Shown here one piece after another: positions 30,677 to 52,414 of a DNA stretch of 58,750 nucleotides (the stretch's first letter is position 1; each line of letters starts with the position of its first letter). Origin of the DNA: Planctomycetota bacterium (GTDB taxonomy: Bacteria; Planctomycetota; UBA8108; UBA1146). The DNA lies in the NCBI GenBank assembly GCA_036338595.1, contig JAYZBV010000057.1:1-58750 (forward strand), given 5' to 3'. A program made the translations under genes and the position numbers. Below the pieces are notes generated by a model that saw only the letters and a program-made list of their open reading frames with translations, was not told where the DNA came from and searched no databases.

Positions 30677-30989
30677 GCTTCGACCGGGATGCCGATCCGA
30701 CTACCGAGGTGCGCCGCGAATTCCGGCATCCGTTCCCGAATTTGCCGATGGCAGCAGTTCCCGGGTCCCCAGTCGAATAAGACCCTCGTTGCGGTCTGAG
30801 CCCTCTGTGGCTAACATCGGAGAAGTAGGGTGGGTGCCATCGTCAGCCGATCTGAGCAGACCTCAGCACCCTCTCGACGGGCTTTTTCTGATATTTCCGA
30901 GATGGTCCTCTCGAGTTCCTGTGCATCTGCATCAGGGCGATGGGATCAGGTCTGACCTGCTGTTGCAGGTCCGTGGGGAAGGGACACCA

Positions 30990-33900
30990 ATGCGAGCAGT
31001 CTTCGCAGTGGCAGTTCTCTGGATACAGTTCGCCGTTGTCGGCACAGCCTTCAGCCAGTCCATCACGGATGGAGTGGTCGAAAGTCGGACTCCCATCGAT
31101 GGCAAGATCCACATGGTCGCGGGGGTAGGAGGAGCCGCTCTTCCACTTCCCGAGGGCGTGAAGCCGGACCTGGGTGACCCATTTCAGGCATTGCGATATC
31201 ACGGTGAATCCTTCGGCATTCGTTTTCCGGAACGCGAACTGGCGATCACCAGGACCGAGCGTTGCTCGCTGGGGATGATTCATCACACATTCGAGCAGGT
31301 TCATCTGGGTGTGAAGGTGTTTTCTGGTGTGATCAAGGTTCACCTGTCTCCCGATGGTACTCCTCGCTCGATCAATGGAGACTTTTACAGGCTGCCCAAG
31401 AAACTATCAGTGACACCATCCGTGTCGCTGGATGAGGCGCTGATCCTTGCTGAAGCCCATCTCGATCAGCAGCTACTGGTTCAAACTGCCGATGCCGAAC
31501 TGGCCATCGTGAACCCGGGATGGTGGGGGGATCCGTTTCTCCCTGCGCCGGTTCTTGCCCATCACCTTGTCGTCGAGGGATCAGAGATGCTCGCAGAGCA
31601 TGTGCTGATCGATGCCGCCAGTGGCGATCTCCTCGACCACTGGCCGGCAGTGCACAGCGCTCGCTTTCGCGAGGTCTACGACGGTAGTGGCGGTGGACTT
31701 CCTGGAAGCCTTGCCCGATCGGAAGGCTCGGCCGCCAGTGGCGATACCGATATCGATGAGGCGTACGACACTGCTGGAGATTTCTACCGGTTACTGTTCG
31801 ACGGTCTCGGGCGCGATTCTCTTGATGGCAGTGGTAGCACATTGACCGCCACCGTGCACTGGAATGACCCCATCTGCCCCAATGCCATCTGGAATGGGAA
31901 TCAGATTGCGTTGTGCAACGGACTCGCCACTGACGATGTGATCGCTCATGAGTTCGCCCATGGCCTCACACAGTTCACTGCCAACCTGATCTATCAGAAT
32001 CAGCCCGGGCAATTGAACGAGTCGTACTCCGATATCCTTGGAGAAACGATAGATCTGTGGAATGGCAATACATCCGTTGTCGGCACACCTGGAGGAACCC
32101 CCTGGCCCGGCGGCACCACTGGTGGAGGACAGGATACTCCCAACTCCGCGCGAACCGGCTGCAATGATGGATCGACACGCTGGCGCATGGGAGAGCAGAC
32201 CAGTCTCAACGCCATCCGCGACCTGTGGTTTCCCGAGTGTTTCAACGATCCCCCCAGTACCACCGATCCGCTCTACAACCAGAACGCCTGTGGACCCTTC
32301 GATAACGGTGGTGTCCACATCGGTAGTGGAGTTTTCAATCACTCCTACAGCATGCTCGTGGATGGCAAGACCTATAACGGGCAGACCGTGTCGCCGATCG
32401 GCTTGACCAAGGCGGCCGCGGTGTATTTCCGTGCCCTGACGGTATACATGACCTCGGGCACCGCCTTTCCGCAGGCAGAGACCTTCATCAATCAGGCTGC
32501 GGCAGACCTGCTCAACTCGAGTCCAAACGATCCACGTACAGGCAGTCCCGGTGACGTCTTCACGCAGAGCGATGCGGACCAGGTGGCCGCCGCCATGATC
32601 GCCGTTGGAATGTCAGAACTGGTTTGTGGTCAGGCTCCTCCCGGACCTCCGCCCTCCAATGATGACTGTGCGGGATCAGTTCTGGTATTCGTTGGGCTCA
32701 ACGACATCAACAGCAACAACGCCACGACGGGTGGACCTCCTGGCGATTCAGGACAGTGCAGCGGAACTTTTCTGGGCGATGTCGGCAACGACATCTGGTA
32801 CTCGTACGTACCGCCAGAAGATGGACTTCTCTCCGTCAGTACCTGTGATATCGCCAGCTGGGATACGGATCTTCTCGTCTACGAGGGAGACTGCGGATCC
32901 CTGCTGCAGATCGCCTGTAACGGCGATACCGGTGGTTGCGGAAACTTCACATCGGTCATCAATGACATTCCCGTGAGTGGCGGATTGACCTACCAGATCA
33001 GGGTTGCTTCCTGGAGTGAAGGCACCACCGGGTCGGGTCAGATGGATGTGGCCTTCGTCGGAGGCGGCGGTGGAGCAGTGGAGAACTGCACCAACGGTGT
33101 CGATGATGATGGGGACGGTCTGATCGATTGTGCGGACCCGGAGTGCGCCGCCGACCCGAACTGTATTCCGGCGCCGCCAGGAGACGAGTGTGAGGCAGCC
33201 TCGGTAGCAGTGTTTGGTTCGAATCCTGTCGATACCACTACTGCCACGCAAAGCGCAGATCCGTTCGATTCAGATACTTGCCCGGGAACTTTCATGGGAC
33301 AGATGACCAGCGACATCTGGTTCAGTTACACTCCCGTCGAGAATGGCGATTACACCATCAGTACCTGCGACAGCATCGACTTCGATTCTGACATTGTCGT
33401 CTATTCGGGCAATTGTGATTCGTTGACCCAGGTCGCCTGTAATGGCGATGCGGCCGGCTGTGGTGGTTTTACCAGTCTGGTCGAGATGACGATGACCGCA
33501 GGCACGGGATACTACATCCGGCTCGGAGGCTGGAATGATACGGCATCGGGCACGGGCACGCTCGATATCGGTGCCACCACTCCTCCACCTCCTCCCGAGA
33601 ACTGCTCCAACGGCACCGATGATGATCTCGACGGTCTCACGGACTGCGAGGATCCGGACTGTATCGGTGATCCGGCTTGCGTCTGTGAACCGATTTCGGG
33701 ACTCGGGTGTAGCCAGGGTGCTGGCACCGAGGTCGTACTCTCGTGGGTCAATGGTGAGTCCTACACCCTGATCTCCCTGTATCGAGATGGAGTCGTGATC
33801 GATTCGCTGCCGGGAACCGCAACGGGATATGTCGACAGTTCTACATTTCCTGGCACCTATTCCTATGCCGTGGTTCCTTTCTGCGATGCCACTCAGCAGG

Positions 33901-35225
33901 CAGCCGGAGTGATTTGTGCCGTGAATGTGGAACTCAATGGCGGGTTCAGTCTCGTGGCTTCCGATGTTGCCGGAGGATATAGCGGATCAGGAGCAGAGTT
34001 CGAGACGATGATCTCGGCGACCGAGTTCACTGATAACCCCGGATTCCCGACCAGTACCGCGGGCTTCTCGTTTGGTCTCGGTCATGATCCCGATCTGTTC
34101 GCAGCCATCGGCGCTGCCCCGGCGGGTGCGGTAGCTGCCCTCGACGGAGGTGCTGGACCGCAGTTCTTCGAAGCGTCCAGTTTCCCCAACGGCATCACCG
34201 TCGGATGCGTCTACAGCTTCACCTTCGCAGAAACGATCCAGATGATCACCGAGACATCGCTTTCGACGATCAACTACGAGTCCTTGCCGGGCGTATTTTC
34301 CAGTACAACCGGCACCGTGACGAGTGCGCTGGATTTCACAGAAACACTCGGCAATCCGGTGGTGCAGTCGATCATCTCCACCGATGCGGGAGTAGCGATC
34401 GGTGTGATTCCCACGGGAGCGGTCGTGACCCTCACTCCTACCGGGTTCATCCTCACTGCAGTGGATCAGACGGTGGCATTCCCGCCATCGACCGGAGCCG
34501 CCACCGTCATGGCTTCCTTCACGCTGGAGGAGGATGCGACCAATGCGGGCTATCCAAACGACACTCAGGGTTTCTCGTTCGGCGTTTCGCACGATCCGGC
34601 GGTACTGACAGTGACAGGCGGTGTCGGTGCACAGGTCATCGATGACCTCAACAACGGCACCGGTGCTGACTTCCTCGATGTGGGACTGTTCACAGATGGA
34701 TTCACCTGTGGCTGCGTTTACAGTTTCCTGGGTATCCAGACGATTCAGTTCGCTTCTCCCATCGAACTGGCCATCGCCAGTTACGACACGGTTCCAGGTG
34801 CTCTGATCGGATCGACTTCAGACGTGAACACGATCCTGTCCATCTCGAACAGCCTGGGTAGTCCCCCCGTGGAGATTGTCGTGGTGGTGAACTCTCAGGC
34901 TCTTGGTGCTACGGGGGTCGCTGGACTCATCACACTCACACCGGTTGTGGGTGGATTTGTGCGTGCGGATGTCAACGACGACGCACTCGTCAATCTGGCC
35001 GATGCCATCACGGTGCTGGATGCGCTGTTCCTCGGTGGAGTGATCAATTGCATGGATGCTGCCGATACCAATGACGATGAACTGACCAACATTGCAGATG
35101 GCGTATTCCTGCTCACTTACCTCTTCTCGGGCGGATCCGCTCCTCCTGCGCCTTTTGGTGGCGGTTGCGGTGCAGATCCGGCCGGTACAGCACTGGATTG
35201 TGCCGAGTACCTGTCATGTAACTGA
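30990..35225 (+). CDS. Secreted M4 (thermolysin-like) metallopeptidase with accessory repeats, two cohesin-like domains and a dockerin-like tail
   Basis: Signal peptide; FTP/PepSY-like propeptide; NAIWNG, DVIAHEFAHG, GQLNESYSD, GGVHIGSG; 2x NC.NG.DDD.DGL.DC.DP.C; 2x GFSFG..HDP repeats; FVRADVN tail. Confidence 0.88.
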   Translation: MRAVFAVAVLWIQFAVVGTAFSQSITDGVVESRTPIDGKIHMVAGVGGAALPLPEGVKPDLGDPFQALRYHGESFGIRFPERELAITRTERCSLGMIHHTFEQVHLGVKVFSGVIKVHLSPDGTPRSINGDFYRLPKKLSVTPSVSLDEALILAEAHLDQQLLVQTADAELAIVNPGWWGDPFLPAPVLAHHLVVEGSEMLAEHVLIDAASGDLLDHWPAVHSARFREVYDGSGGGLPGSLARSEGSAASGDTDIDEAYDTAGDFYRLLFDGLGRDSLDGSGSTLTATVHWNDPICPNAIWNGNQIALCNGLATDDVIAHEFAHGLTQFTANLIYQNQPGQLNESYSDILGETIDLWNGNTSVVGTPGGTPWPGGTTGGGQDTPNSARTGCNDGSTRWRMGEQTSLNAIRDLWFPECFNDPPSTTDPLYNQNACGPFDNGGVHIGSGVFNHSYSMLVDGKTYNGQTVSPIGLTKAAAVYFRALTVYMTSGTAFPQAETFINQAAADLLNSSPNDPRTGSPGDVFTQSDADQVAAAMIAVGMSELVCGQAPPGPPPSNDDCAGSVLVFVGLNDINSNNATTGGPPGDSGQCSGTFLGDVGNDIWYSYVPPEDGLLSVSTCDIASWDTDLLVYEGDCGSLLQIACNGDTGGCGNFTSVINDIPVSGGLTYQIRVASWSEGTTGSGQMDVAFVGGGGGAVENCTNGVDDDGDGLIDCADPECAADPNCIPAPPGDECEAASVAVFGSNPVDTTTATQSADPFDSDTCPGTFMGQMTSDIWFSYTPVENGDYTISTCDSIDFDSDIVVYSGNCDSLTQVACNGDAAGCGGFTSLVEMTMTAGTGYYIRLGGWNDTASGTGTLDIGATTPPPPPENCSNGTDDDLDGLTDCEDPDCIGDPACVCEPISGLGCSQGAGTEVVLSWVNGESYTLISLYRDGVVIDSLPGTATGYVDSSTFPGTYSYAVVPFCDATQQAAGVICAVNVELNGGFSLVASDVAGGYSGSGAEFETMISATEFTDNPGFPTSTAGFSFGLGHDPDLFAAIGAAPAGAVAALDGGAGPQFFEASSFPNGITVGCVYSFTFAETIQMITETSLSTINYESLPGVFSSTTGTVTSALDFTETLGNPVVQSIISTDAGVAIGVIPTGAVVTLTPTGFILTAVDQTVAFPPSTGAATVMASFTLEEDATNAGYPNDTQGFSFGVSHDPAVLTVTGGVGAQVIDDLNNGTGADFLDVGLFTDGFTCGCVYSFLGIQTIQFASPIELAIASYDTVPGALIGSTSDVNTILSISNSLGSPPVEIVVVVNSQALGATGVAGLITLTPVVGGFVRADVNDDALVNLADAITVLDALFLGGVINCMDAADTNDDELTNIADGVFLLTYLFSGGSAPPAPFGGGCGADPAGTALDCAEYLSCN

Positions 35226-42072: not shown

Positions 42073-43098
42073 CTATGGCCGGCTTCGACCTCCTGGCGGT
42101 GCGGTTCCTGGATCGGTGACCGGGATCTCCGTATCCCAGCTCTTGCCGAGTCGGCGCCCCTGTCGAACATGTGAGCGTGTGTTCTTCTGCGTCGGTCGCC
42201 TCGTCTCGAGCGCCTGATCGAGAGCCTTGCGGATGGTATCAGCGTCTGCATCGGCGGCCAGTTTTGCAATCACCTCGACCTGGAGTCCGTAATTGTCTGG
42301 CTGTACGACCCAGATTCCAGAAGCGGGCTTGTCGATCCCCACAGCCTTCAATTGCGACGGCTCGGTGGTGGATGCCCAGCTCAAGCGGCCGATGTAGGGT
42401 TCCGTCCAGCCGATGGCTGCGAGCGATTGGAGCTGTTCATCATCGAGTCCGCCGCTGATCACGAGGGGTAGTCGATCACAGGCCGCGATGTTGACGGCGC
42501 GACGAACATCCTTGGCCACTGGCAGCGCAGGACCTGTTGAAGCCTCGGGCTTCTTTGACGGTGGGTGACTCTTTGCGAGGTGTTCCATCTCGAGGGCGAG
42601 AACGGTTCCTTCCCAGCCGGTGGCACCACCGAATACCATCCTCGGGGTGCGGCCCGAGGCACTCAGCCGGGTTTTTCCATCGGGAGCGAGCATCACAAAA
42701 ACCGTGTTCTCCAGCTGCCCAGAGCGACCCCGATAGATCCCTTCCAGCAATTTGCCCTCGACGGCATCTTCGTAAGTGGCCAGTCGGACACAGACAAATT
42801 TTCGAGATGCGTCGATGACGAGTGGGTCGGACCAGAGACTCCGGTCCATCTCCTGCTTGCCGGGTCACCAGATTCCAGGCACGCCATGGCACTGGGGGGC
42901 TGCCGAGAGCAGCAGGATCGGCTTTCCGCTGCGGCTGGCTTCCGCCCTGGCACCTTCCCATGTACCCCACCAGGCGACCCCTGCGGGATAGTTGATGCTG
43001 CCCATGACAGGTGCGATTTCGAGGTCAGCGGCCGGTTTAGCACCACTGCCGAGGATCAGAACCACAATCATGAGTGGATAAAGGGGTAGGTGGATCAT
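42073..43098 (-). CDS. Exported thioredoxin-like protein, probable selenoprotein (in-frame TGA 42865-42867 read as Sec; 341 aa)
   Basis: Track ORFs 42865-43098 and 42073-42849 share a frame, joined by TGG TGA CCC GGC AAG CAG GAG ATG. The fused sequence gives a continuous Trx pattern W..A.AEA..SGKPILL...W-U-PGK.EMD...SDP.V...SRKFVCVRL. Confidence 0.75.
42829..42847 (-). promoter_or_regulatory. Candidate bacterial SECIS hairpin
   Basis: mRNA GGACCGGA-GUC-UCUGGUCC stem-loop starting 18 nt after the UGA, with GU in the apical loop. Confidence 0.6.
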
Positions 43099-43254
43099 CG
43101 GACTCCTTCTGCTGACAAGATAACCCCGCTAACCGAGTCGAGGTGTAACAATTGATGCGGCTTCTGAGTCGAATACCATTCAGGGGTGTGACGCAGTTGA
43201 GGAACAGAGCTGATTTCGCAACGAAGTTCGATCGCCAATGGAGGTGAAGTGCTC

Positions 43255-45156
43255 ATGGATAATTCACGGTGGCTCCCGCTTTTCTTTGTGTGGATCATCG
43301 GCTGTATGCTGACTCCATCGCCCTCGGATGCTGCTGATCATCCGGTAGCCGATCTTCGCTGGGATTTCAGGGATGGATTTGTTTCTTCATCCGGCGCTGT
43401 CAAGGCGGCCGCTGGAGGTCTTGACGGTCAACTTTCCGGGGATCTTGTCCTGGCCGATGCAGGATCCGGCCCGCTTTTATTTGGAGGCGGAGCCAATGGG
43501 ATGTTGATGGTCGCGAAGGATTACAAGCCGGTTTCCCGTCATCTGCCGACTCAGGATTTTACGATCAGTTGCTGGGTAGTACTCGAAGAGTTGATGCCGT
43601 GGGATTCTCTCCTTTGCTGTCTTCAGGACAACGGCGGATTCGAGAAGGGTTGGTTACTCGGTACTCGAAACGGTAAACCATGTGTGGCTGTCTCCAGTAA
43701 AGGCTCCGATGATGGCGACGGAGCGATGACCTACCTCGATGGTTCCAGGTTGATGACGCTGGGAAAGTGGCACCACATCGCCGGCAGTTACGACGGCAAA
43801 ACCATGAAAGTCTACCTCGATGGAGAAATGGTGGGTGAGAGCGGAGCACAGTCCGGGCCGATTCTATATCCCGAGAAAGCGTCGCTGGTGATTGGCTCAT
43901 ACGTCGATGACGACGAAAATCACCCCCATATCGGAGCCGTCCAGGATCTTCGCCTGTGGAGGACTGATCTGTCGGCAGCCGAGATGAGAGCCGTGGCGAG
44001 TCAGGAACCCGGCTGTACCCGGTCGGCGCCACCACGACCTCCGCTAGCGATGGTCGTGGCTCCGTATTTGCAGTGGGGTACCACCGATGGAATCACGGTC
44101 TGTTTTGAATCCAATCGGCCCACCGTGGCGATGGTCGAATACGGGGCGACAGCAAATCTGGGAAACTCGGTAGTGAGCGATGAGCCGGCCAAACTCCACC
44201 ACGTTCGGATCGAGGGGTTAGAGACGGGAACTCCCTACTTCTATCGCGTCACGGTTCACCAAGACGGGAATCCGGAAGCAGGAGTCGAGGGGATGGAAAC
44301 GGGGATCCTCACATTTCAGACTGCAGCGGATGCCGACACCGCATTCGGTTTCCTGGTGGTGGGGGACACCCAGAACAATCCGAAAGTGACCAGATCAGTA
44401 AGTGACCTGGCATGGGGACACCGTCCTAATTTCATCGTGCATTGTGGCGATCTGGTGGGGACCGGCAGTAACAAGCGAGAATGGGTGCACCAGTTCTTCG
44501 CCGAGGCAGCGGATATTCTCTGTCGCTACTCGATGTTCCCGACTCTGGGAAACCATGAGCAGAATGCGGCACTGTACTATCAGTATTTCACCATGCCGGA
44601 GCCGGAGTATTACTACCAGTACAGCTGGGGGAATACTGATTTCTTCGTGGTCGATACCAACAAGCGGATCGCTTCCGATACCGATCAGGTGAAATGGCTC
44701 GAAGCGGCTCTGGCAGCGAGCAAGTCGACCTGGAAGGTCGTCTATCATCACCATCCAGCGTGGACTTCCGATGAGAATGATTACGGAAACACCTGGAAGG
44801 GTGGGTCCGACCAGGGCTATCCCCCGGTACAGAAGACATTGGTCCCTCTGTATGAGAAGTACGGTGTGGACGTGGTGTTCAACGGTCACATCCACGTTTA
44901 TGAGCGAACCTGGCCGATCAGAAACGGCAAAACAGTAGAAGCTGGAGAAGGAGTGGTCTACATCACCACCGGCGGTGGCGGAGGTAGTCTGGAGAATTTC
45001 GCTCCCAATCGAACCTGGTTCAGTTCCAACAAGAGGATCGGACACCATTTCATGATGGTGAACGTAAATGGACCCGAGATGGAGATTTCCGCCTTTGATA
45101 TCGAAGGGCGACTGTTCGATCGAACCGTAATGAAAAAGGAGAACACGGACCGTTGA
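43255..45156 (+). CDS. Secreted LamG + PAP-type FN3 + metallophosphoesterase (no dockerin)
   Basis: Signal peptide; WHHIAGSYDG..MKVYLDG LamG; APYLQ; GDTQ, GDLV, GNHE, HHP, GHIHVYER. Start 43249 or 43255. Confidence 0.85.
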   Translation: MDNSRWLPLFFVWIIGCMLTPSPSDAADHPVADLRWDFRDGFVSSSGAVKAAAGGLDGQLSGDLVLADAGSGPLLFGGGANGMLMVAKDYKPVSRHLPTQDFTISCWVVLEELMPWDSLLCCLQDNGGFEKGWLLGTRNGKPCVAVSSKGSDDGDGAMTYLDGSRLMTLGKWHHIAGSYDGKTMKVYLDGEMVGESGAQSGPILYPEKASLVIGSYVDDDENHPHIGAVQDLRLWRTDLSAAEMRAVASQEPGCTRSAPPRPPLAMVVAPYLQWGTTDGITVCFESNRPTVAMVEYGATANLGNSVVSDEPAKLHHVRIEGLETGTPYFYRVTVHQDGNPEAGVEGMETGILTFQTAADADTAFGFLVVGDTQNNPKVTRSVSDLAWGHRPNFIVHCGDLVGTGSNKREWVHQFFAEAADILCRYSMFPTLGNHEQNAALYYQYFTMPEPEYYYQYSWGNTDFFVVDTNKRIASDTDQVKWLEAALAASKSTWKVVYHHHPAWTSDENDYGNTWKGGSDQGYPPVQKTLVPLYEKYGVDVVFNGHIHVYERTWPIRNGKTVEAGEGVVYITTGGGGGSLENFAPNRTWFSSNKRIGHHFMMVNVNGPEMEISAFDIEGRLFDRTVMKKENTDR

Positions 45157-48957: not shown

Positions 48958-51900
48958 TCAGGGGCAGTTGTTGTACTCGGCGCAGTCGAGATTGTCCGCA
49001 GTTGGATCCTCACCGCAATCTCCGAATGGATCCGGAGGATTGTTACCACCGCTGAAGAGGGTGCCGAGGATGAAAATGGCATCGGCGATGTTGATAGAAC
49101 CGTCGTCGTTGGCATCACAGGCGTCGACACAGGTGCTGTCAGGACCTCCCGAGAAGAGGTTTCCGAGCAAGAAGATGGCATCAGCGATGTTGAAGCCGCC
49201 ATCGGCGTTGCAGTCACCGCGCTGGAATCCAAGCGTGGGAGGAGACCCTCCACCGGCCAGGAAATCATGATATGCGGCGATGAGAGCATTCTGATCACCC
49301 TGGTAGCCACCCAGTTCGAAACTGGCGCAGATCACTCTAGCCCCGTTATCGGGGATGTAGGCGGTGGTGGTGCCTTGATCGACACCGAGGGCATCATCGT
49401 AACGCCACACCAGTCCGGCAGATCCTCCGGCCAGTTCAGCAGTGGCAGGAATCAGGTTGTCAGTGAAGTCATTGGCATTGCCAGTGGCTGCCTGGTTGTC
49501 CTGATTGTAGGCCACGTTCTGCAAACTCGACATGTCGAGGCCCATTCCGGAGTCGACCCCGTCGAGAGAAGTGAGCAGGTCGTTGTCATCCTGAGAGTAG
49601 GGCTCGGCAACTCCGTCTCGATCGTCGAAAGAAGAGATCGGATGGTTGAAGCTCCAGTGGTCAGTGCTCTCGAAGTAAATGGCAACACCGGCTGATGCAA
49701 GATCAGCGATGACGTTGGCCTCGTCCGAGTTGAGCAGGAAATTGGTCGGCCAGGTACCGCAGGCGATCCACACCTGGCTGACTCCGCCAGAGTTGATACA
49801 AGCGTAATCATCGATCTGCATTCGGATCAACTTGGCGTTGGCACCGCCAGCCAGAAGCCCGGCCAGCATCGTTGCTCCTGAATCATTGCTGCCCGTATCA
49901 CCACCGCTGAACAGGCCTTCCATGGCGACCACAATTGTATCTTCGCCGTTGTAACTGAAGTGATCGACGAAGCCGATGGCCTCAGCAGCGCCGACAGCGC
50001 AGATACCGCGTACGGTGTAATCGTGGAGGCCATCGCTGGGGCCACCATCGGAATAGGTCGTATCCGTGCCCGCGACGGTGGCCACAACGACTCCATCCCG
50101 TTCGATCTCGATACTGTTGTAAGTCGCGCTGTTGATCCAGGAGAGTTCTACGGTGTTGGTATTGCAGTCGCTGGTGATGATCAGATCGCCAGGTGCATCA
50201 CACTGGGCCGGGCAAACCTGGATTGCCCAGTTACTAATGATGCCGCCGGTACCAGGCACCGTGTCCGCGACGGTCAACGTCCAGTCTCCTCCGATGCTTT
50301 CGCCATCGAAGTCGGCGAGTGAACCGGGTCCTGAGGGGATCAGAGTGCCGAAACCGTCATTGTTGCCGGTGGCATCGTCGTAGCGACCGAACAGGTCAGT
50401 TCCTGCTCCATGGTCGTGCAAGCGGACCGAGGTTCCCTGTGGGGAGAGCAAATCCACTTCCAGGTCGGATGTGTCGTTATGGGCGACATCGATGTCCACA
50501 TCCAGATCGTTGATCCCGGTCAAGTCAGCGGGATCGACAGAGATCACATGGTCGCTTGCAGAAGTTCCATCGGGAATGTCCTGTGGTTGGCTGATGAATA
50601 GCCCCCAGGACTCGAGGGTTCCTCCTGCGGATCCACTGAAAGTATCGGCGATGACTATCGCCCAGACCCCGTCAACAGGCTCACCATTAAAATCGGCGAG
50701 GCTTGCGGTGCCCTGTGAAAGATCATAGGGCTGCATTCGTTCACCGCTGTAGGTCGTTACGCTACCGTAGGGTTGTCCGTCATCATCGAAGATCAGCAAC
50801 ATGTCGTCGTCTGAATTCGTTTCATTCTGATAGAGGCGGATTTGCGTCTGGGACGGTCCGATCAGGTCGATGTCCAGGTTTCCGATGAAGGCATGGGAGA
50901 TGTCGATGGCGACATCCAGATCCGCGATGTCACCTGAAGCTCCGCTGAGATCGATGAAGTCAAAGTCCGGCACCGGGGGATCACCGACGTAGTCGATGGG
51001 CATTCCGGGTGAACTACTGGCGGTTGTTCCGACAAATCCAAGCAGTTCGATGTTTGGATTCGGGAACTGGTGACAGTCAGCGGGGGGACAAAGGATGGTG
51101 AGAGTTGCATTGCCACGCTCTCCGTTGAAGCCGCCAAACTGGATCAGATAGTCCTCTCCGGCGATGGCGTCGAGCAAGATCTCCGGTTCTCCCGATCCGG
51201 TGCAACTGCCCGCATCACAAGCGATTTCTGAACCGGTAGCAGGTGGACATTGACCACTGCCGGGGTAGATCGCCATCTGGGGATTGAAGTCTGCGCTGCC
51301 ACAAGTCGTCACGGTCACGATGCCACTGCAGGTGGCGCTGTAGAGTACCCACACATCGTTGAGAAGGCTGCCGCCACAAGTGGTCGGGCCATCGGTGGAG
51401 GCACCGAGAGTGGTCAGGTTGTAGGCACCTTCGATAACGTTGGTGGCATTGGTGCAGTCGTCATTGGCAGGAGGGGGGGCGCAACTCGGATCGCCGGCAC
51501 AGTCACTGTCGGCGCAGTCGACATCTCCATCGCCATCATCGTCGGTACCGTTATCACAATCCTCCGGGCAAGTATTGGAGGAGCCGGGAGTATCAAAGGG
51601 CTGGCCAAGATCTGCAAAGGGGAGAATCTCCCAGGAGCCGTTTGCATCGGGACAACGCACGATATGTGCCGGAACGAAGGTCCCATCGGGGCCGATGGTA
51701 TTGGGGCTGTAGATCAGTTCTCCCGCGCTGGTATTGCCAGTAATGGGATCGATGGGATCCTCGAGAAGTGCGATGGAATCGACGATAGAAGTCCACGGGG
51801 TGCTGTCGAGGTTGCCATCGTCGTCGGTGTCCAGGTCATCCCCTACAGCTCCGCTGAATCCCTCCACCAGCATGTGGGTCACGTTGTCACCGTTCTCGAA

Positions 51901-52221
51901 GTTGAGATCTGTCGTCAAGTCGGCCAGGCCGATCGTGAAGGTGGATTCGGCCGCTACGAACAGGCCACTGGGGGGGACGATCACACCAAACAGACCGACG
52001 ACAGCTTCGACGGTTCCGCTACCTGTGGATCCATCTCCGATCACTATGTAAGTGAGCGTCGAGATCGAACTACCCGCGGGGACTGACAGTTCAAAATACT
52101 CATCATTATCAGTACTCGATTGATCGATACGAATCTCATTGATCGTGACCTGACCGTCGAGCAGAGCAGGGCTCAGAATGAGCGACAACAATAGTATCGA
52201 TGCAAAAAATGGACTCTTCAT
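48958..52221 (-). CDS. Secreted multidomain protein: lamin-tail-like, Cys/Asp metal-binding repeat, PPC-like, 2 proprotein-convertase P-domains, FN3-like, alpha/beta domain, dockerin-like
   Basis: Signal peptide; INEIRID..EYFEL; DCDNGTDDDGDGDVDCADSDC; 2x DLDV.IDI.H....L.IDL..P.GT..RL..LADF.GE...G.W; FQRGDCN tail. Confidence 0.8.
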   Translation of the reverse strand: MKSPFFASILLLSLILSPALLDGQVTINEIRIDQSSTDNDEYFELSVPAGSSISTLTYIVIGDGSTGSGTVEAVVGLFGVIVPPSGLFVAAESTFTIGLADLTTDLNFENGDNVTHMLVEGFSGAVGDDLDTDDDGNLDSTPWTSIVDSIALLEDPIDPITGNTSAGELIYSPNTIGPDGTFVPAHIVRCPDANGSWEILPFADLGQPFDTPGSSNTCPEDCDNGTDDDGDGDVDCADSDCAGDPSCAPPPANDDCTNATNVIEGAYNLTTLGASTDGPTTCGGSLLNDVWVLYSATCSGIVTVTTCGSADFNPQMAIYPGSGQCPPATGSEIACDAGSCTGSGEPEILLDAIAGEDYLIQFGGFNGERGNATLTILCPPADCHQFPNPNIELLGFVGTTASSSPGMPIDYVGDPPVPDFDFIDLSGASGDIADLDVAIDISHAFIGNLDIDLIGPSQTQIRLYQNETNSDDDMLLIFDDDGQPYGSVTTYSGERMQPYDLSQGTASLADFNGEPVDGVWAIVIADTFSGSAGGTLESWGLFISQPQDIPDGTSASDHVISVDPADLTGINDLDVDIDVAHNDTSDLEVDLLSPQGTSVRLHDHGAGTDLFGRYDDATGNNDGFGTLIPSGPGSLADFDGESIGGDWTLTVADTVPGTGGIISNWAIQVCPAQCDAPGDLIITSDCNTNTVELSWINSATYNSIEIERDGVVVATVAGTDTTYSDGGPSDGLHDYTVRGICAVGAAEAIGFVDHFSYNGEDTIVVAMEGLFSGGDTGSNDSGATMLAGLLAGGANAKLIRMQIDDYACINSGGVSQVWIACGTWPTNFLLNSDEANVIADLASAGVAIYFESTDHWSFNHPISSFDDRDGVAEPYSQDDNDLLTSLDGVDSGMGLDMSSLQNVAYNQDNQAATGNANDFTDNLIPATAELAGGSAGLVWRYDDALGVDQGTTTAYIPDNGARVICASFELGGYQGDQNALIAAYHDFLAGGGSPPTLGFQRGDCNADGGFNIADAIFLLGNLFSGGPDSTCVDACDANDDGSINIADAIFILGTLFSGGNNPPDPFGDCGEDPTADNLDCAEYNNCP

Positions 52222-52414
52222 CACAACCTCCAACGAAGAGACGAACCCAGGCACGCAGTAAAAACTGACAGGCCGAATTCGATTGAAATAGGCAGACCTC
52301 CAACAACTCCCATCCTAAGGCTCACTCCGGAGACTCGCAACGCGGGGAAGTCCGAATCTCGCGGGGATCGTTGGGGACAAGAGAGAGATCCTTGGCTTGT
52401 AAATGTACAGACAG

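Follow-up and report, generated by a model that had tools for sequence, protein, structure and literature searches.

Two small open reading frames on the minus strand of the window (the whole 58,750-nucleotide stretch that was analyzed, which is contig C57 in a genome of 2.9 Mb and 88% completeness whose nearest named relatives are Planctomycetota) are almost certainly one gene for an exported thioredoxin-like protein, the internal stop of which is a selenocysteine (Sec) codon. The upstream frame (77 amino acids, 43098-42865, stop included) and the downstream frame (258 amino acids, 42849-42073) are in phase and are separated by the TGA at 42867-42865 and five sense codons (PGKQE), an arrangement described in the original prediction and borne out by the coordinates and the translation. 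Decoding of the TGA as Sec yields AAPQCHGVPGIW-U-PGKQEMD, a product of 341 amino acids with Sec as residue 78 (U78). Judged from the comparison of homologues, it can be held with very high confidence that this is one gene in which the UGA would be read as selenocysteine by SelB and tRNA-Sec with the help of the hairpin at 42847-42829. The features of the gene are collected in table 1.

Table 1. Features of the read-through gene and its predicted product (coordinates of the window).
Feature	Coordinates (strand)	Basis
Shine-Dalgarno-like AAGGAG (putative)	43103..43108 (-)	4 nt 5' of the ATG; read from sequence
Whole gene	43098-42073 (-)	ATG 43098 to TAG 42073, 341-aa read-through protein; Cys-bearing homologues run continuously over both halves
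Signal-peptide-like N-terminus, about residues 1-23	43030..43098 (-)	Hydropathy
Thioredoxin domain 1, residues 39-183, Thioredoxin_7/DsbD-gamma/DsbH-like, bears Sec	42550..42984 (-)	PF13899 E 7e-5, below cut-off; VIA Z 10.8, rmsd 2.6, 125 aligned to 3f9u
Eight-residue insertion P68-G75 before the active-site Trp	42874..42897 (-)	8-residue gap against ERp18 and AGR2; E 0.11-0.37, placement approximate
Cys70 on the inserted loop, putative resolving Cys for Sec78	42889..42891 (-)	TGC/TGT in 121/121 copies
In-frame TGA, Sec78	42865..42867 (-)	First-Cys position of the thioredoxin motif
Lys81 at the second-Cys place of CxxC	42856..42858 (-)	98/103 distinct copies; Tyr, Phe or Met in the others
ATG of Met84, false start chosen by gene callers	42847..42849 (-)	Homologue starts and DNA copies
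Bacterial SECIS hairpin, 8-bp stem, GUC loop	42829..42847 (-)	Covariation, frozen synonymous codons, fit to bSECIS constraints
Asn131-Thr132 at the X-cis-Pro place of thioredoxins	42703..42708 (-)	Asn 255/256, Thr/Ser 253/256, Pro 0/256 best homologues
Thioredoxin domain 2, residues 185-299, lacking a Cys at the active-site position	42202..42546 (-)	pLDDT mostly >90; VIA Z 9.1 to 6i19
Conserved C-terminal helix and tail	42109..42201 (-)	His310 232/255, Trp321 247/255, Asp329 239/251

The organization of the gene was compared with that of its homologues at the protein and the DNA level. The protein set (n = 256) combined the best 120 of 272 matches with the best 150 of 764, two overlapping samples, and includes the downstream frame of the window itself. 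Among these 256 best homologues, 247 start behind the Sec codon, one starts at it and only eight span the site; the spanning protein records carry Cys (seven) or Leu (one, P0018) at the Sec column. The original prediction had expected annotation pipelines to produce two hypothetical genes; 248 of the 256 are cut, and NCBI calls the truncated products either “thioredoxin family protein” or “hypothetical protein”. The DNA set consisted of 119 loci (nine, the best 30 of 58 with the window included, and the best 80 of 218) that gave 122 matches. All 121 gene copies that cover the site contain TGA at this column (the copy of the window included; 103 distinct copies), as do all 32 of a further group of divergent copies that were found in part with a Cys-form query, and neither TAA nor TAG occurs at the stop column in the 153 copies examined. 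The Cys/TGA pairs that had been proposed as a check are thus present at the column, and two hallmarks of a selenoprotein gene were found: a UGA that aligns with Cys in homologues and a UGA that is conserved among homologous genes.

A search of 301 genomes for Cys-codon genes with a Cys-form query returned 97 matches, of which 94 have the TGA and the remaining three fail to cover the site. A search with residues 38-95 for full-length annotated forms gave 26 candidates, none of which scored; as it missed the known Cys forms as well, it carries no weight either way. In a quick unrooted tree the Cys and Leu forms require four changes, two of them forced by strong branches, and two long branches are possibly misjoined; some Cys forms sit inside Sec clades, a hint that they derive from Sec forms. 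Matches with two TGAs were considered as double selenoproteins and rejected, as the extra TGA is the C-terminal stop wherever it could be placed (one copy was beyond placement). Two further copies (L156 in G113 and L160 in G321) carry a frameshift soon after the SECIS and represent broken genes or assembly errors.

The start of the downstream frame bears on the alternative that the TGA is a true stop between two coupled genes, one for an exported 77-amino-acid peptide and one for a cytoplasmic 258-amino-acid protein that begins at Met84. The downstream part stands in the databases as a protein, the Met84 position is the start of 193 of the 256 best homologues, and an ATG is found there in 86 out of 101 DNA copies. 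However, the other 15 copies lack that ATG, the cut would split a single thioredoxin domain at its active site (AlphaFold model), TAA and TAG are both absent from the column, fused Cys forms exist, and the hairpin downstream of the TGA covaries. Two separate genes are therefore a very improbable explanation.

The stem-loop GGACCGGA-GUC-UCUGGUCC starts at the 18th base past the TGA and its loop starts 25 nt past it. According to a recent survey, bacterial SECIS elements have a stem of 4-16 bp, a loop of 3-9 nt with a G in the first two places, a distance of 16-37 nt from the UGA and an energy of at most -7.5 kcal/mol (PMC13188914); the corresponding values here are 8 bp, GUC, 25 nt and -12.7 kcal/mol. 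The energy of the hairpin was rejected as evidence in its own right: the single 60-nt stretch folds no better than its shuffled versions (z 0.04; 102/200 as good), and the same SECIS-like filter is passed by about 2% of the genome's stop codons, whatever their type (TGA 813/41122, TAG 183/9190, TAA 100/4624). It is the comparison across copies that places the hairpin above chance, because the structure is conserved and covaries. In 78 distinct 45-nt stretches, which provide 624 cells (many from related sequences and not separate events), 93.8% of the cells are paired and five of the eight pairs show two-sided changes (0/500 shuffles). The two-sided changes amount to 37 cells, compared with 9.2 in shuffles and 0-7 in slid controls. 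The codons that overlap the stem are frozen at synonymous positions (loop Ser AGT 98/98, Arg AGG 70/76, Leu CTG 78/80), with a mean top-codon share of 0.91 in six stem codons versus 0.47 in 115 other columns. The SECIS-like element of the original prediction is thereby upheld in its 8-bp stem, the GU of its loop and its position, with covariation added, whereas the single hairpin taken alone is not significant.

The genome encodes the machinery for Sec insertion, as had been asked of it: selA, selD and the tRNA-Sec gene adjoin on contig C72 and selB is located on contig C108, each above its curated cut-off, so that selA, selB, selC and selD are all present. The selD gene carries an in-frame TGA of its own. 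Among the sampled genomes of the phylum, selA was found in 48 of the 49 that bear the family (the exception has selB) and in 240 of the 352 others, a comparison in which kin are not independent. Overall, 288 of the 401 sampled genomes of the phylum contain selA, a high share, and literature searches turned up little on selenoproteins there. That the TGA might be an assembly error is contradicted by bridging contigs from two other, independent studies (X2 record 13 and X6 record 23; contigs, not raw reads), in which it is unchanged. The genome encodes RF2, TGA closes 401 of the 613 frames of at least 500 codons, and the selA and selB genes have no internal stop. An artefact, a pseudogene or a code that reads TGA as Trp or Gly can accordingly be given next to no weight, since the two frameshifted copies elsewhere (L156, L160) are set against an identical codon in two other studies, a TGA that terminates in the presence of RF2 and homologues with Cys at the site, never Trp or Gly. 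The sequencing runs that contain the window sequence are mostly seawater metagenomes. A promoter scan returned 0 sites, and the four short contigs from one RNA run belong to a relative (20 differences in 228 nt across the site) and are not evidence of transcription of this gene.

The product is very probably exported by a signal peptide, as first proposed and as suggested by hydropathy: a hydrophobic stretch precedes domain 1 in 84 of the 87 copies that are not truncated at the 5' side (a further 14 are cut off by contig ends). An AlphaFold model based on 16 sequences (mean pLDDT 85) contains two thioredoxin domains, residues 39-183 and 185-299, and both display the thioredoxin topology (Z 9-11). 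In the model Sec78 caps the active-site helix, and it aligns with the first Cys of the ERp18 motif WCGAC (E 0.11, approximate); both observations agree with the earlier placement of the TGA at the first Cys of WCxxC, the alignment weakly. The proposed C-x7-U spacing is found in all 121 main-family copies and is not universal in the divergent paralogues. Among the 32 divergent copies, all of which keep the TGA, there are seven in which Cys70 has shifted or is missing, and one of these has no loop Cys at all. Cys70 is therefore not essential throughout, and Sec is the constant residue of the site, because the TGA stays where the loop Cys moves or disappears. The UxxK motif that had been suggested was recovered in most distinct copies, but the Tyr, Phe or Met found elsewhere indicates that residue 81 is not fixed within the site. 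Besides Cys70, Cys103 is equally conserved (250/251), and Arg105, Glu110, Glu114 and Arg150 are nearly invariant in the family. The register of the cis-Pro position was set by the Pro-to-Gly spacing of nine residues that is shared by three thioredoxin-type proteins encoded in this genome, and not by structural alignment. The divergent paralogues at L150-L155 have long insertions, VPGTW-U or CGVW-U motifs, an Arg-rich helix and a related hairpin.

Domain 2 resembles thioredoxin h1 (Z 9.1, rmsd 2.4, 98 residues aligned), and its Cys207 is present in only 218 of the 256 best homologues. No similarity between domain 1 and domain 2 was detected in a search for an internal repeat by sequence. The degenerate second thioredoxin-like unit of the original prediction is thus real by fold and undetectable by sequence. 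A few relatives (P0018, P0024, P0032 and L102) contain an additional N-terminal helical domain between the signal peptide and domain 1, or an EF-hand-like region there (P0186; weak match to a lanmodulin model, E 0.002).

The closest known relatives of domain 1 are proteins of the Thioredoxin_7 (PF13899), DsbD C-terminal, DsbH and ERp18-AGR2 type, which share the fold, the N-terminal helix-strand pattern and export. All 38 aligned members match PF13899 (best E 2e-9), although the whole protein (23.3 bits) and domain 1 (26.8 bits) remain below the 27-bit cut-off; one Cys homologue has the domain in its precomputed annotation. Domain 1 gave structural matches of Z 10-11 to 3f9u, 2lst, 2ju5 and 6dnu (DsbD-gamma, DsbH and UAS domains), and a sequence search of solved structures found nothing below E 0.17 with the full profile and E 0.11-1.3 with the domain-1 profile. 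In contrast to the Thioredoxin_7-type proteins, the protein described here replaces the first Cys by Sec and the second by Lys, lacks the cis-Pro, and carries an eight-residue Cys-bearing insertion, a second thioredoxin domain and a conserved tail. Since the +3 residue is Lys, Tyr, Phe or Met, there is neither CxxC nor UxxC, and Thr or Ser takes the cis-Pro place before the fourth strand (Pro 0/256, register by spacing), which sets the family apart from the classical dithiol oxidoreductases. Two selenoprotein models gave weak N-terminal matches. VPGUxxT (NF041382/NF041383) likewise represents a Thioredoxin_7-like selenoprotein with VPG shortly before Sec, but the match covers some 60 of its 287 positions and scores 13.3-15.2 bits (cut-off 275), and the motif here is VPG-I-W-U without Thr at +3. 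Trx7/PDZ (NF041199) was matched over its first 63 positions by 32 of the 38 members (best E 5e-4), at 11.4-18 bits against a cut-off of 300; its motif is given as CxxU in PMC13188914, and no PDZ domain is found here. TsoB (NF045694), a rhodanese/DsbD fusion, was not matched by the query, the best score being 14.2 bits against 805 in a homologue.

Further comparisons concern more distant thioredoxin-fold proteins. Sec thioredoxins and TlpA/ResA-like proteins with UxxC, several of which are encoded in this genome, have Sec at the same first-Cys position and a SECIS directly behind it; unlike them, the present protein has no resolving Cys at +3. The tandem a-b modules of PDI and QSOX, the top Foldseek rows, also combine a catalytic with a noncatalytic thioredoxin domain, but TM-scores of 0.2-0.3 and an rmsd of 15-20 show that the domain arrangement differs, and CxxC is missing here. 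Glutathione peroxidases (PF00255) have in common the thioredoxin fold, one Sec and the absence of xxC, and their tetrad (Sec/Gln/Trp/Asn) includes an Asn (PMC7409322). The distance from Asn131 to the Gly of the next turn is 10 residues, the same as for the WNF Asn in two glutathione peroxidase genes; this agreement in register, the only one found with the tetrad profile, provides a lead and may be coincidence. Homology to the glutathione peroxidases was rejected: there is no PF00255 match, the hhalign probability is 0.2%, WNF and UxxT are absent, and none appears among the 50 structural matches listed.

No NCBIfam model came near its cut-off (query best 13 bits against 275) in scans that covered the query, 15 full-length relatives, 38 domain-1 sequences and 11 further homologues. 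The accessible portion of the 2026 list of 119 selenoprotein families (PMC13188914), in which several rows are without a motif and of which the NCBIfam-modeled families were scanned, has no thioredoxin entry with C-x7-U or WUPGK. A paper describing the family did not appear among the results listed by full-text literature searches; the BSepDB tables were outside the comparison, and absence from print is not proven. The family is apparently an uncatalogued variant of the thioredoxin-fold selenoproteins that falls outside every selenoprotein family tested.

Sec at this position of thioredoxin-fold proteins is an established nucleophile. The product is most likely a periplasmic selenol oxidoreductase, in which the selenolate of Sec78, placed where the active-site helix begins, would act as the nucleophile. 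Because Lys replaces the second Cys, oxidized Sec78 would be resolved either by an external thiol or by Cys70 on the inserted loop, the latter giving a C-x7-U selenenylsulfide. A DsbD-type membrane domain is encoded in the genome, and this DsbD/CcdA-type membrane carrier would re-reduce Sec78. Domain 2 would be noncatalytic and, together with the tail, probably binds the substrate or a partner. The loss of cis-Pro and the invariant polar set Arg105, Glu110, Glu114, Asn131 and Arg150 suggest one specific substrate (a peroxide or another small oxidant, or else a single dedicated partner) more than they suggest general protein-disulfide shuffling, and this narrower proposal has somewhat less than an even chance of being right. 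A bolder reading, tentative and on balance doubtful, is that the family constitutes a separate class of periplasmic selenoenzymes in which the thioredoxin fold was rebuilt for a small substrate as an independent peroxidase-like solution. The same doubtful reading would include a resolving Cys on the inserted loop (C-x7-U), Asn-Thr in place of cis-Pro, a pocket formed by domain 2 and the tail, and a family that is known almost exclusively with Sec, its few Cys members having arisen from Sec ones.

The same selenoprotein might instead serve as an envelope protein-disulfide reductase or isomerase similar to DsbD-gamma/DsbH or the a-b modules of PDI, with domain 2 binding unfolded clients. The nearest folds are of the DsbD-gamma, DsbH and ERp18/AGR types, tandem-thioredoxin PDI and QSOX chains head the Foldseek results (at the low TM-scores given above), the protein is exported and the DsbD-type carrier is at hand. 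This function is nevertheless unlikely, as the second Cys of the xxC is missing, none of the 256 best homologues has Pro at the cis-Pro place, and so many invariant charged residues would be unusual for a broad-range catalyst. Less probable still, at roughly the level of an outside chance, Sec78 and Cys70 might bind or pass on a soft metal or metalloid without electron cycling. An exported protein that exposes a Cys/Sec pair on a loop would suit such a role, which has been proposed for SaoT, a thioredoxin-like selenoprotein with unusual motifs (10.1101/2022.07.06.499078); yet no metal transport or resistance gene occurs among the recurring neighbors listed, and one paralogue loses the loop Cys and keeps the TGA. 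Taken as a whole, an exported two-domain Sec oxidoreductase is in all likelihood the best explanation.

The family was identified in 49 of the 401 sampled genomes of the phylum and in 83 of 301 genomes of another order. It adds a widespread, apparently uncatalogued family to the roughly 119 prokaryotic selenoprotein families listed, and its active site, a C-x7-U that lacks both xxC and cis-Pro, is absent from the accessible part of that list (PMC13188914). Most of its members are misread as cytoplasmic hypotheticals, since the 248 best homologues that are cut just behind the Sec codon lack both the signal peptide and the active site. According to PMC12013277, deep-Sep requires, among the top ten hits, a known homologue with Sec or a minimum of two with Cys; because Cys forms are rare (7/256), the family may have been overlooked under this requirement. 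If the reading as a separate class were true, the family would exemplify abundant selenoprotein families that are overlooked by searches for Cys/Sec pairs. As a thioredoxin-fold selenoprotein the protein nonetheless belongs to the commonest class, and its function is a proposal. The covarying SECIS set lends itself to a clean natural test of the rules for bacterial SECIS elements.

Additional candidate selenoproteins were encountered. Six more in-frame TGAs are located at UxxC thioredoxin-type sites of the same genome, G000 (C12:2449(-), C28:3132(+), C38:9208(-), C77:15103(+), 20236(+) and 30010(+); loci L165-L170), each with a SECIS-like hairpin and five with signal-like N-termini, and all six score below the NCBIfam cut-offs. 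Further unlisted subfamilies may be represented by the C12/C28 pair (FTRSY-x-P-U-x-PC) and by C77:20236 (EAPG-U-LGC). At C79:335(+) of G000 a TGA is immediately followed by Cys (SGCLSGG-U-CISEY) and by a hairpin with a stem that resembles the SECIS described here, which makes it a candidate selenoprotein gene. A glutathione peroxidase gene with a TGA at the active site was found at L164 (G183).

Among the neighbors listed, no gene that would indicate a substrate is conserved across the family, and a conserved operon was not found, as neighbors recur among close kin only (metallophosphoesterase, DinB-like and LOG-like genes at this locus, a sulfatase-like gene in another group). At three loci (L063, L065 and L089) the gene is present twice, and a sulfatase-like gene follows at a short distance. 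The locus L014 belongs to a record titled Bacillota and carries an 88% identical gene in the gene order of the Planctomycetota loci; the contig is probably mislabeled or misbinned. In the window, the divergent neighbor (43249-45156 (+)) has a signal-like start and encodes a LamG-like domain with a purple-acid-phosphatase-type metallophosphoesterase, and it is kept adjacent in close kin. Two large secreted proteins (30789-35225 (+) and 48958-52254 (-)) have Cys/Asp-rich repeats and a similar C-terminal domain, and the first of them contains what we take to be an HExxH peptidase-like motif.
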